Source of the DNA: a virus
Virus genome (UHGV): UHGV-2175977
Reading direction: 5' to 3' (one strand)
DNA: 17,361 bases
Within the stretch, counting starts at the first letter, position 1. The number at the start of each line of letters is the position of its first letter. The notes under the pieces are model-generated. The model worked only from the letters and a program-made list of their open reading frames with translations, searched no databases and had not been told where the DNA came from. The position numbers were made by a program, and so were the translations under genes. Shown here piece by piece: positions 11,222 through 11,850 of the stretch.

Positions 11222-11521
11222 TTATAAGAAATCGGTTTCATAACTTTGTCCGCCATGATAAACACCTGCGATAAAGACTTTATTGTCATCAACGGCAAAA
11301 GCAATAATCGTTCTGTGGCGGAAATGAGTTACCCGCATCCCCTGGCGAATATCATCGCGTTTATTGCCCCGATGCGGAAATGCAGAAAACCCATCAAGAT
11401 AATCAAGAAGCGCATTGGCATAATTGTCAGCAATGACGCCTCCTGCTTTCTCCGTTATATATCTGTGCAGGTTTATTATCTGCTGTTCGGCCTCGGGGGT
11501 AATGATGACTTCAAATGTCAT
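11222..11521 (-). CDS. Type II toxin, ParE/RelE superfamily
   Basis: 99-aa ORF 5 nt downstream of a small RHH-like ORF; size and motifs (…RQGMRVTHFRHRTIIAFAVDDNKVFIAGVYHGGQSYE) fit ParE-like toxins. Confidence 0.7.
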   Translation of the reverse strand: MTFEVIITPEAEQQIINLHRYITEKAGGVIADNYANALLDYLDGFSAFPHRGNKRDDIRQGMRVTHFRHRTIIAFAVDDNKVFIAGVYHGGQSYETDFL

Positions 11522-11526
11522 GCAGA

Positions 11527-11784
11527 CTACTTCCCGGATCTAATCGCGGCGCGAACCTGTGAAATGGAGCGTCCGTTGTTTGGGTTTTCGCGGATAGAAT
11601 CAAGAGAGGGGGCGACTGAATGCGTTAACCACGCTTCGATTGCTTTATCGCGCTCATTCAGTGCGCGAAGCCCTTCACGAATGACCTCGCTTTCTGAAGC
11701 ATAGGCACCGGAAGCCACACGGGAGCGCACCATGTCAGCCATCTCGTTAGTTAATGTAATACTGAATTGTTGGGTTGTACGCAT
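11527..11784 (-). CDS. Type II antitoxin, ParD/CopG ribbon-helix-helix family
   Basis: ORF track starts at 11847; ATG at 11784 has GTGAGG RBS and gives MRTTQQFSITLTNEMADMVRSRVASGAYASESEVIREGLRAL (RHH fold pattern). Confidence 0.65.
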   Translation of the reverse strand: MRTTQQFSITLTNEMADMVRSRVASGAYASESEVIREGLRALNERDKAIEAWLTHSVAPSLDSIRENPNNGRSISQVRAAIRSGK

Positions 11785-11834
11785 GGTAAACCTCACGGAG
11801 TAGGATAGAACACCATTCGATGATAGCACGCTGC

Positions 11835-11850
11835 CTGTTGACGACAACAG
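11835..11850. promoter_or_regulatory. Inverted repeat CTGTTG-ACGA-CAACAG upstream of the antitoxin (candidate TA operator / divergent promoter region)
   Basis: 6-bp arms with 4-bp spacer about 50-65 bp upstream of the antitoxin start; minus-strand TATCAT -10-like hexamer between it and the gene. Confidence 0.3.

Follow-up and report, generated by a model that had tools for sequence, protein, structure and literature searches.

KluA and KluB of IncP-1β plasmids (R751-type backbone, beside klcA) belong to the same ParD/ParE subfamily, and have the same gene order, as a gene pair on the 17,361-nucleotide stretch of viral DNA analysed here (UHGV virus genome UHGV-2175977, hereafter the window). 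The two toxins share about 44% identity, and KluA begins with MRTTQQLS. Approximately 21 nt upstream of kluA lies a perfect palindrome, TAGGATTGAATCCTA, that doubles as the -10 element. The two systems differ in that kluAB is plasmid-borne, whereas the parDE genes of the window are chromosomal (prophage-borne), with a palindrome that appears eroded and a promoter that appears rebuilt. ParD4/ParE4 of Caulobacter crescentus (CC2985/CC2984) can be likened to the pair by a model match only, i.e., to the NCBIfam model TIGR02606, which is named after CC2985 and which the antitoxin matches with 55.8 bits against a cut-off of 46.2. ParDE4 is an experimentally studied chromosomal system (PMC9851616); it is linked to oxygen-dependent cell death and the release of eDNA in biofilms, is not part of a prophage, and has genes that overlap by 21 bp. 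Structures have been solved for Mesorhizobium ParDE3 (5CEG/6X0A), Mycobacterium tuberculosis ParDE1 (8C24), Caulobacter ParDE1 (3KXE), Vibrio cholerae ParDE2 (7R5A), and Pseudomonas aeruginosa ParDE (6XRW). These pairs share the toxin fold (TM 0.78-0.80) and the ribbon-helix-helix (RHH) architecture with the pair in the window, but their toxins are just 12-23% identical to its ParE. V. cholerae ParD2 is an autorepressor that binds to short motifs recurring around the promoter of its own operon (PMC10776004). Such a mechanism is assumed here for the ParD of the window as well, although the ParD2 operator consists of three GGTA motifs that are unrelated to the palindrome TAGGATTNAATCCTA discussed below.

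Several ParE-fold toxins are also known from prophages, namely, ParESO/CopASO (Shewanella CP4So), PfiT/PfiA (Pseudomonas Pf4, 9W3A), and the three-component PaaR2-PaaA2-ParE2 (Escherichia coli O157:H7 CP-933P, 5CW7/5CZF), and these are the nearest functional analogies. They use other antitoxin families (CopA-type, PfiA, and PaaA2 with a separate regulator, PaaR2), and their toxins are 17-20% identical to that of the window. ParESO/CopASO is reported to be necessary for maintaining the excised circular prophage (PMC8706911). Lastly, relB-relE-hokD of the K-12 prophage Qin, which combines an RHH antitoxin with a toxin of the RelE/ParE superfamily, occupies the same slot just upstream of a small gene (rem), ydfU (DUF968), and Q. 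The RelE of Qin is an mRNA endonuclease, unlike the predicted gyrase poison ParE. The placement of the window's pair had been said to mirror that of relBE in Qin, which is correct for the slot upstream of DUF968-Q but not for the orientation: relBE lies on the same strand as ydfU-Q, and parDE on the opposite one.

The parD-parE pair and its products

The window represents a Rac-like lambdoid prophage of E. coli that is integrated beside ompW. On its minus strand, parD (11527-11784, encoding an RHH antitoxin of 85 aa) precedes parE (11222-11521, ATG start, encoding a ParE-family toxin of 99 aa), with a 5-nt gap between the parD stop (11527) and the parE ATG (11521). The start of parD is an ATG, as in the PGAP annotation and in all homologues, and a Shine-Dalgarno sequence, GAGG (11791-11794, minus strand), was read 6 nt before it, the GAG of which is invariant in the clade alignment. 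The mechanical ORF call, which starts from a TTG and reaches 11847, extends parD too far, as PGAP and the homologues use the ATG at 11784. The genes at higher coordinates, DUF968 (12200-13252), rusA (13253-13618), and Q (13615-14283), are located on the plus strand. ORFs, profiles, and fold searches thus agree with the original prediction of an opposite-strand, two-gene module next to a DUF968-rusA-Q block (12200-14283), in which an RHH antitoxin gene lies 5 nt upstream of that for a ParE/RelE-fold toxin. The two genes co-occur in 97 of the 98 loci examined.

Profile searches in Pfam and NCBIfam placed both proteins above the curated cut-offs. Besides TIGR02606, the antitoxin matches Pfam PF03693 (33.8 bits, cut-off 21) and phrog_6494 (3.5e-55), while the toxin matches the Pfam ParE_toxin profile PF05016 end to end (39.6 bits, cut-off 23) and phrog_5232, labelled 'toxin' (2e-40). 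These protein-family matches are far beyond chance, and the locus is very probably a parD-parE type II toxin-antitoxin module. It is an ordinary, uncharacterised representative of a known family, and both genes are already labelled as toxin and antitoxin in RefSeq, where identical proteins are annotated, and in PHROGs; as a toxin-antitoxin module, it adds little. Literature searches turned up no experimental work on the module itself or on close homologues, and nothing specific to it under ArgO145 combined with toxin-antitoxin or under ParE in lambdoid/Stx phages.

The AF2 model of ParD (pLDDT 90.4) has an extended N-terminus followed by helices at residues 13-24, 31-66, and 74-84. Its best matches in the PDB are ParD RHH domains, which superpose at an rmsd of 1.0-1.5 Å; the E-values are weak (0.06 or worse), as is to be expected of a monomer this short. 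At the sequence level, it matches ParD1, ParD2, PrpA, and ParD3. The N-terminal strand, MRTTQQFSITL, is the element with which RHH proteins enter the groove of the DNA, and seven of its residues (M1, R2, T4, Q6, S8, T10, and L11) are invariant. With a dN/dS of 0.09 (0.086), parD is under purifying selection. The N-terminus forms the ribbon-helix-helix DNA-binding domain, and we infer that the C-terminal helical region (residues approximately 50-85) binds the toxin.

For the toxin, the question is which branch of the RelE/ParE fold it represents, since the fold is common to gyrase poisons and to ribosome-dependent mRNA endonucleases of the RelE/YoeB type, and the PGAP name (RelE/ParE family toxin, RefSeq WP_029400502.1) does not distinguish between them. 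A Foldseek search of the PDB with the AF2 model (pLDDT 88.8) also yields YoeB, YafQ, RelE, and HigB, which would fit an mRNA endonuclease; however, the 23 top matches are all ParE toxins (TM 0.72-0.80), whereas the TM of RelE, YoeB, and YafQ is no higher than 0.64. The end-to-end Pfam match, sequence-level matches in the PDB to ParE proteins only, and the ParD-type RHH partner point in the same direction, making an endonuclease quite improbable. As judged from these models and profiles, the toxin belongs to the ParE branch, and it is predicted from its family membership to be a DNA gyrase poison. Certain ParE-fold toxins are weakly toxic or have different targets. An apparently narrow distribution of the toxin (31 word-index matches compared with 2577 for the antitoxin) disappeared upon an exhaustive profile search, which gave 1965 cluster representatives.

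Transcription signals and the candidate operator

A sigma-70 promoter for parDE is predicted by consensus scan at 11820-11847 on the minus strand, with the -35 TTGTCG (11847-11842), a 16-nt spacer, and the extended -10 TGcTATCAT (11828-11820); this promoter and its transcription start are consensus predictions, and throughout the enterobacterial clade neither GTGCTA nor the -35 core varies. A divergent promoter-like site, TTGACG-18 nt-AATATT (11838-11867, plus strand), faces the hypothetical gene 11920-12198. Its counterpart in other genomes is the isrK promoter flanking the cassette, TTGACG-18-TATATT, and in one of these loci (L004) the 5' end of isrK lies 7 nt downstream of TATATT. Some phage records call the gene 11920-12198 'toxin to Rem'; it has no similarity to K-12 Rem and no Pfam match. 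At the other end of the cassette, a bidirectional intrinsic terminator hairpin was found (11105-11146, both strands), in which GCTCCCGAC (11111-11119) pairs with GTCGGGAGC (11130-11138). Its folding energy is -24.5 kcal/mol on the minus and -22.9 on the plus strand (z -6.6 and -7.3, respectively), none of 200 shuffles being equally stable. On the minus strand, the A6 run at 11105-11110 is read as a U6 tail at the predicted end of the parDE transcript, and the hairpin also lies 3' of the plus-strand ORF 10502-11017 and within the stretch common to phage ArgO145 and locus L093. Convergent terminators had been described here; one strong bidirectional hairpin accounts for them, whereas a second hairpin (11161-11184) is weak and non-significant as a terminator (z -1.7).

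Comparison of parD upstream regions from distant phyla revealed a palindrome, TAGGATTNAATCCTA (7-1-7), located 15-30 nt upstream of parD at the -10/+1 position. Of 43 non-redundant upstream regions with otherwise unrelated flanks, 27 contain it with at most one mismatch. It also occurs in Alphaproteobacteria and an actinobacterium (Sphingobium, Magnetospirillum, and Naumannella) and upstream of IncP-1β kluA. In many of these promoters, the left arm of the palindrome doubles as the -10, as a -35 with at least 4/6 matches is found at 16-18 nt in 20 of 36 cases (mean of 3.69 matches versus 2.36 at control positions). A clade variant, TAGTGTTCWATCCTA, is conserved from E. coli to Izhakiella with varying flanks. 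In the window, the corresponding site is a degenerate copy, TGGTGTTCTATCCTA (11801-11815, minus strand), which differs from TAGGATTNAATCCTA at 5 of 15 positions and spans the predicted transcription start. Against a matrix built from 28 family sites, it scores 4.8-5.5 bits, which is less than shuffled windows reach on average with their best match (10.4) and not significant by itself; it is therefore positional homology, traced via intermediates, that identifies it. A stronger but unrelated match to the matrix (10.2 bits) lies at 15309-15323. We lean towards 11801-11815, as the local eroded form of TAGGATTNAATCCTA, as the autoregulatory site, and ParD may bind this eroded copy poorly or not at all. 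Viral contigs scanned for GTAGGATTWAATCCTAC gave 25 matches, none adjoining a ParD or ParE gene. The scan is uninformative on association, because the count is about that estimated for chance and the palindrome-bearing clade lies outside the collection, and the comparison starting from parD loci was used instead. A literature search for the palindrome returned nothing specific. TAGGATTNAATCCTA offers a concrete candidate operator motif for a widespread ParD subfamily, including the unstudied kluAB of IncP-1β resistance plasmids.

The original prediction had named a different candidate operator, the inverted repeat CTGTTG-ACGA-CAACAG (11835-11850, both strands), which lies 51-66 nt upstream of the parD ATG and about 30 bases further from parD than TGGTGTTCTATCCTA. 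Its presence at this position was borne out, and in this reading ParD bound there would block the parDE -35. Such a role could be argued from the perfect 6+6 arms, the overlap with the predicted -35, and an intact repeat in most E. coli and Salmonella copies, and a replacement operator is conceivable because this clade retains no more than a badly eroded form of the ancestral palindrome. However, the outer arm bases vary without compensating change (CAACTG in loci L093-95, CAATAG in L019, GTGTTG/CAACAA in ArgO145), and Yersinia and L101 no longer carry the repeat. It is also absent from the wider ParD family and bears no resemblance to the family-wide palindrome, even though the DNA-reading strand of ParD is unchanged. 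The core that is conserved, T.T.GTCGTCAA, falls on two overlapping, back-to-back -35 hexamers, TTGACG (plus strand, 11838-11843) and TTGTCG (minus strand, 11847-11842), which explain the invariance, the former being that of the isrK promoter in six other contexts. Moreover, perfect 6+6 repeats with loops of 0-10 nt arise once per 259 nt in the window, and the 135-nt intergenic region contains 2 where 0.52 are expected, so that the repeat alone is not beyond chance. Altogether, a function as ParD operator appears unlikely, and the repeat is more likely the back-to-back -35s of parDE and a divergent isrK-type promoter, as far as can be read from the alignments. An obvious inverted repeat at a toxin-antitoxin promoter is hence not necessarily the operator, and distant relatives can discriminate between such candidates.

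A broader scenario can be put forward tentatively, and we consider it rather a long shot. The KluA-like ParD subfamily (MRTTQQFSITL) would use one operator, TAGGATTNAATCCTA, from Actinobacteria to Proteobacteria and IncP-1β plasmids, and in the enterobacterial prophage lineage this operator would have become half-eroded and the promoter rebuilt, sharing its -35 with an isrK-type promoter. Expression of parDE might thereby be coupled to the neighbouring anti-repressor genes, or to the hypothetical gene-DUF968-rusA-Q block in the case of E. coli. As the cassette is always antisense to the surrounding phage operon, transcription reading through it when the prophage is induced could shut parDE down, and ParE would then be set free.

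Distribution and possible roles of the cassette

Among 5426 complete E. coli genomes, 328 contain the cassette; the flanking gene region is present in 2209 genomes. The same cassette is found in the Stx phage ArgO145 (92.7% identity over window positions 11104-11867) at a different position, near int and ead genes, which indicates the behaviour of a mobile unit. It adjoins isrK-C4-ant in Salmonella, Yersinia, and other loci, its promoter-side boundary is always at 11867-11880, and there the homology of the window to isrK-flanked loci ends. In related phages and loci, hok, ImmA-type, or relBE-hokD genes occupy the slot instead. PHROG assigns the cassette genes to the category 'moron', and a predicted promoter, a strong terminator, the other position in ArgO145, and variable slot occupancy all agree with this; parDE is an autonomous accessory cassette of approximately 0.65-0.87 kb. 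Overall, the locus is likely to be best explained as a self-contained prophage parDE cassette, with 11801-11815 as the candidate autoregulatory site.

In the proposed mechanism, the promoter TTGTCG-16 nt-TGcTATCAT would drive a single leftward parD-parE mRNA ending at the hairpin at approximately 11105-11146. ParD would dimerise via its ribbon-helix-helix domain, neutralise ParE with its C-terminal helices, and, with or without ParE, repress its own promoter, while free ParE would poison DNA gyrase. Antitoxins of this kind tend to be labile, so that ParE would be freed once the prophage is lost or parDE is shut off, favouring retention of the prophage (addiction/stabilisation). Prophage stabilisation is one among several possible roles; the catalogued but unstudied pair, carried by 6% of complete E. 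coli genomes and including relatives in Stx phages, may help to retain prophages.

Alternatively, the cassette could mainly serve anti-phage defence via abortive infection, with ParE being released when an infecting phage shuts off host transcription. Prophage accessory slots frequently house defence genes, and the cassette sits in a variable slot of this kind, which elsewhere holds hok, relBE-hokD, or ImmA-type genes. Neither protein matches the PADLOC defence models, however: the toxin has no match, and the sole match of the antitoxin (LmuB, E 0.025) is at chance level. A literature search for the ParD subfamily concerned returned no report of ParDE-mediated phage defence, and the prophage ParE systems that have been studied are reported to act in prophage maintenance or regulation (ParESO-CopASO, PMC8706911; Pf4, as cited in PMC11925232). 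Defence as the main role therefore seems unlikely compared with stabilisation of the prophage.

The argument for retained toxin activity is purifying selection, with a dN/dS of 0.12 (0.123) for the toxin. An inactive relic, with an attenuated toxin and with nothing but the antitoxin or the DNA being retained, might be suspected from the eroded operator in the window allele, from a premature toxin stop in one of 92 loci (L141), and from a frameshift in a distant homologue (L185), the more so as chromosomal ParE toxins can be mild. The selection on the toxin speaks against this, as do 28 positions, including PxRGNxRDD and THFRHRT, that are invariant over 19 sequences down to 61% identity. We consider a relic very improbable; the toxin gene is free of premature stops in the other 91 loci, and all 328 of the 328 E. 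coli copies of the cassette are full length.

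Identity and conservation of the parDE module

As the original prediction had proposed, the module consists of two adjacent ORFs on the minus strand, i.e., the antitoxin gene parD (11527-11784, 85 aa, with an ATG start preceded by GAGG-N6) and the toxin gene parE (11222-11521, 99 aa), with 5 nt between the parD stop and the parE ATG. A longer, TTG-started parD ORF (to 11847) was rejected, as it is used neither by PGAP nor by any homologue, all of which begin with MRTTQQ. Profile and structure matches support the toxin-antitoxin identity and the predicted toxin fold, on the ParE rather than the RelE side. 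The toxin matches Pfam ParE_toxin from end to end (39.6 bits, cut-off 23), its AlphaFold model (19 homologues, pLDDT 88.8) has the β-α-α-β-β-β order of the fold, and the best 23 matches in a PDB fold search are all ParE toxins (TM 0.72-0.80; among them Mesorhizobium ParE3, PfiT, PrpT, M. tuberculosis ParE1/2, P. aeruginosa ParE, V. cholerae ParE2, Caulobacter ParE1, and O157 ParE2), with TM values of at most 0.64 for YoeB, YafQ, RelE, and HigB. The antitoxin exceeds the cut-offs of Pfam ParD_antitoxin (33.8 versus 21) and NCBIfam TIGR02606 (55.8 versus 46.2), which is named for Caulobacter ParD4, CC2985, and its sequence matches in the PDB are ParD1, ParD2, PrpA, ParD3, and NikR RHH domains. 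Its model (pLDDT 90.4) has an extended N-terminus followed by helices 13-24, 31-66, and 74-84, and is structurally closest to ParD RHH domains (rmsd 1.0-1.5 Å, with weak E-values).

The identity, autonomy, and conservation of the module were established directly in this analysis. Estimates of dN/dS across 92-96 E. coli/Salmonella clade loci are 0.086 (parD) and 0.123 (parE), and the toxin carries a premature stop at one locus only; 28 toxin positions are invariant among homologues down to 61% identity. Among 5426 complete E. coli genomes, 328 carry the cassette, each time full length and on the chromosome. An exhaustive profile search for the toxin returned 1965 cluster representatives at E ≤ 1e-3 (575 at E ≤ 1e-10), which makes it part of a large subfamily; the narrow distribution suggested by a word-indexed search (31 matches versus 2577 for the antitoxin) is an effect of the search method. 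Both proteins are already named in RefSeq (WP_029400502.1, type II toxin-antitoxin system RelE/ParE family toxin; WP_029400504.1, ParD family antitoxin) and have one dedicated PHROGs family each, in the category 'moron'. As part of a well-known family the module is ordinary, annotated but unstudied, and what is modestly new is confined to a family-wide candidate operator motif and the way it has eroded among these prophages.

A family-wide palindrome as candidate ParD operator

The original prediction placed the ParD operator at the inverted repeat CTGTTG-ACGA-CAACAG, which is indeed present at 11835-11850 but is unremarkable on its own, since the window has one perfect, short-loop 6+6 repeat every 259 nt on average. 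Two divergent promoter-like sites overlap it, one leading into parD (minus strand; -35 TTGTCG 11847-11842, 16 nt spacing, TGcTATCAT 11828-11820) and one leading away (plus strand; TTGACG 11838-11843, 18 nt spacing, AATATT 11862-11867). The bases that stay invariant in nine divergent enterobacterial clade members, T.T.GTCGTCAA, are the two -35 hexamers, the outer repeat bases vary (CAACTG, CAATAG, GTGTTG/CAACAA) or are lost (Yersinia and the homologous locus L101), and compensating changes in the outer arms were not found. The palindromic look thus comes largely from two TTG motifs facing apart, and the repeat is probably not an operator.

A better candidate emerged when the sequences preceding parD were aligned across homologous genomic and metagenomic loci, whose toxins are 38-62% identical to that of the window. 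Amid otherwise unrelated sequence, one block is shared 15-30 nt before the parD start codon, namely TAGGATT-N-AATCCTA, which is perfect in 17 of 43 non-redundant upstream regions, has one mismatch in 10, and is absent in three. It also precedes the genes for ParD homologues of Sphingobium, Magnetospirillum, and an actinobacterium, Naumannella, as well as kluA of IncP-1β plasmids, where KluB and the window toxin share 44% identity. Hexamers matching the -35 consensus at four or more of six positions occur 16-18 nt upstream of the left arm in 20 of 36 promoters (mean matches 3.69 at the expected spacing versus 2.36 at control positions), which suggests that TAGGAT often serves as the -10. Since 7-bp arms with a 1-nt loop cannot make an RNA hairpin, the block is sensibly read as DNA bound by a protein. 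RHH proteins insert their N-terminal strand into the DNA major groove, and this strand is invariant across the ParD family at M1, R2, T4, Q6, S8, T10, and L11. The TAGG and CCTA cores have a centre-to-centre distance of 11 bp, a spacing that would suit two RHH dimers on the same helix face, as in Arc and likewise in the model of V. cholerae ParD2. The motif was not found in the literature searched.

In the enterobacterial clade, the homologous site reads TAGTGTTCWATCCTA, and the window carries an eroded copy at 11801-11815 (minus strand; TGGTGTTCTATCCTA) with the CCTA half intact. Scores against the family matrix fall from 26.8 bits for the perfect palindrome to 20.7 for L101, 16.5 for Yersinia, 10.7 for the common E. 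coli allele, and 4.8 for the window allele; with a mean best score of 10.4 in shuffled windows, the window site would have been missed but for the alignment. From E. coli through to Izhakiella, whose toxin is 57% identical, the clade variant is kept amid variable flanks, and so looks constrained rather than freely decaying. The -10 of this clade has shifted upstream by 5 nt, and the predicted start site now falls within the element. The best matrix match in the window, the near-palindrome CAGGATTTAATCAGG at 15309-15323, is probably due to chance, as its 10.2 bits lie within the shuffled range. Just downstream of it are two tRNA genes (15370-15442 and 15447-15520, plus strand; Ile and Arg in the matching RefSeq record), which are common downstream of Q in Stx-type lambdoid prophages.

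The IncP-1β klcA-kluA intergenic region (L187, 1118-1175) also holds TTAGGACAAAATGTCCTAA and TTTAGCCGCTAAA, the latter resembling the KorB operator; with this element beside the KluA-type palindrome, the kluAB promoter may be under both global plasmid control and its own ParD-type control. In L185 (about 1076-1390), a distant ParD homologue (P0083) has an intact palindrome, the toxin gene that follows it is split over two frames, apparently a frameshifted pseudogene with the antitoxin kept, and a YefM/YoeB pair lies divergently upstream.

Genomic setting, mobility, and proposed role

E. coli chromosomes such as NZ_CP080260 contain the region at 100% identity, within a Rac-like lambdoid prophage that is integrated next to ompW and carries int, xis, recE, kil, ydaS/ydaT-type genes, and replication genes, followed by parDE. 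Downstream of the toxin gene, the predicted convergent terminators come down to one strong two-way hairpin at about 11105-11146 (minus strand -24.5 kcal/mol with a U6 tail, plus strand -22.9 kcal/mol; z -6.6 and -7.3), a second hairpin at 11161-11184 being non-significant (z -1.7). On the other side lie, all on the plus strand, a hypothetical gene (11920-12198), DUF968 (12200-13252), rusA (13253-13618), and Q (13615-14283). The 92-aa hypothetical protein matches the 66-aa phrog_1212 over residues 27-92 only, and its annotated ATG may be about 78 nt too far upstream. Some phage records call its homologues 'toxin to Rem', but the protein is not similar to Rem of K-12.

The cassette is mobile in its distribution. 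The segment 11104-11867 recurs at 92.7% identity in the Stx phage ArgO145 and two Stx2a phages at a different site, between ead-region genes and an anti-repressor near int. Across seven divergent loci, homology ends at 11845-11880 on the promoter side in every comparison and at 11224, about 11014, or 10919 on the toxin side. The flanking gene region occurs in 2209 genomes and the cassette in 328, every one with the window-type junction. Without the cassette, the slot upstream of hypothetical-DUF968-(rusA)-Q holds hok in vB_EcoS-689R5, HokD and an ImmA/IrrE protein in Tritos, and relB-relE-hokD in K-12 Qin. The predicted likeness to Qin relBE stands for position, upstream of ydfU-Q, but not for orientation, as relBE runs along ydfU-Q whereas parDE is opposite; the cassette is antisense to the adjacent phage genes in all contexts examined. 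Strong Rfam sok matches (hok/sok antitoxin RNA) about 1 kb from parDE in two homologous loci (L004, 1589-1739; L101, 1295-1450) show several toxin-antitoxin modules clustering in one prophage region.

Every functional step is modelled on the family: the lysogen would express this type II module from the module's own promoter, ParD would repress that promoter and neutralise ParE, and once ParD is no longer made, freed ParE would poison gyrase. Judged by ParESO/CopASO of CP4So and by other ParDE systems of prophages and plasmids, the most probable benefit would be prophage retention. Defence against other phages is a possible role as well, but PADLOC profiles and literature searches on ParDE defence lent it no support.

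At the plus-strand promoter-like site, six loci (Salmonella, Yersinia, ArgO145, and three more) have TTGACG-18-TATATT or TATAGT, and in these six the 5' end of Rfam isrK lies 7 nt downstream, ahead of C4 antisense RNA and then an anti-repressor gene; in the window, other sequence replaces the isrK body, and homology to these loci runs out at 11867-11880. parDE directly abuts a divergent isrK-C4-anti-repressor unit in L004 (2462-2648) and, at the same relative position, in L044, L093, L100, L014, and L101, with overlapping -35 elements at these six loci, a pairing that may be more than coincidence. The window has C4 (5575-5662, 73.8 bits) and isrK (5687-5763, 67.2 bits) Rfam matches elsewhere, both on the minus strand, which would form an immI-like isrK-C4-antirepressor module belonging to the prophage itself. 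The two matches fall within the 5' portion of an annotated Rha-family regulator CDS (4966-5814), whose start is therefore probably annotated too far upstream. The YdaT-family 'toxin' of RefSeq (7238-7663, plus strand) lies beside an HTH regulator in the immunity region; PMC9986795 describes YdaT as acting not as a toxin but as a DNA-binding regulator of the CII-like kind.
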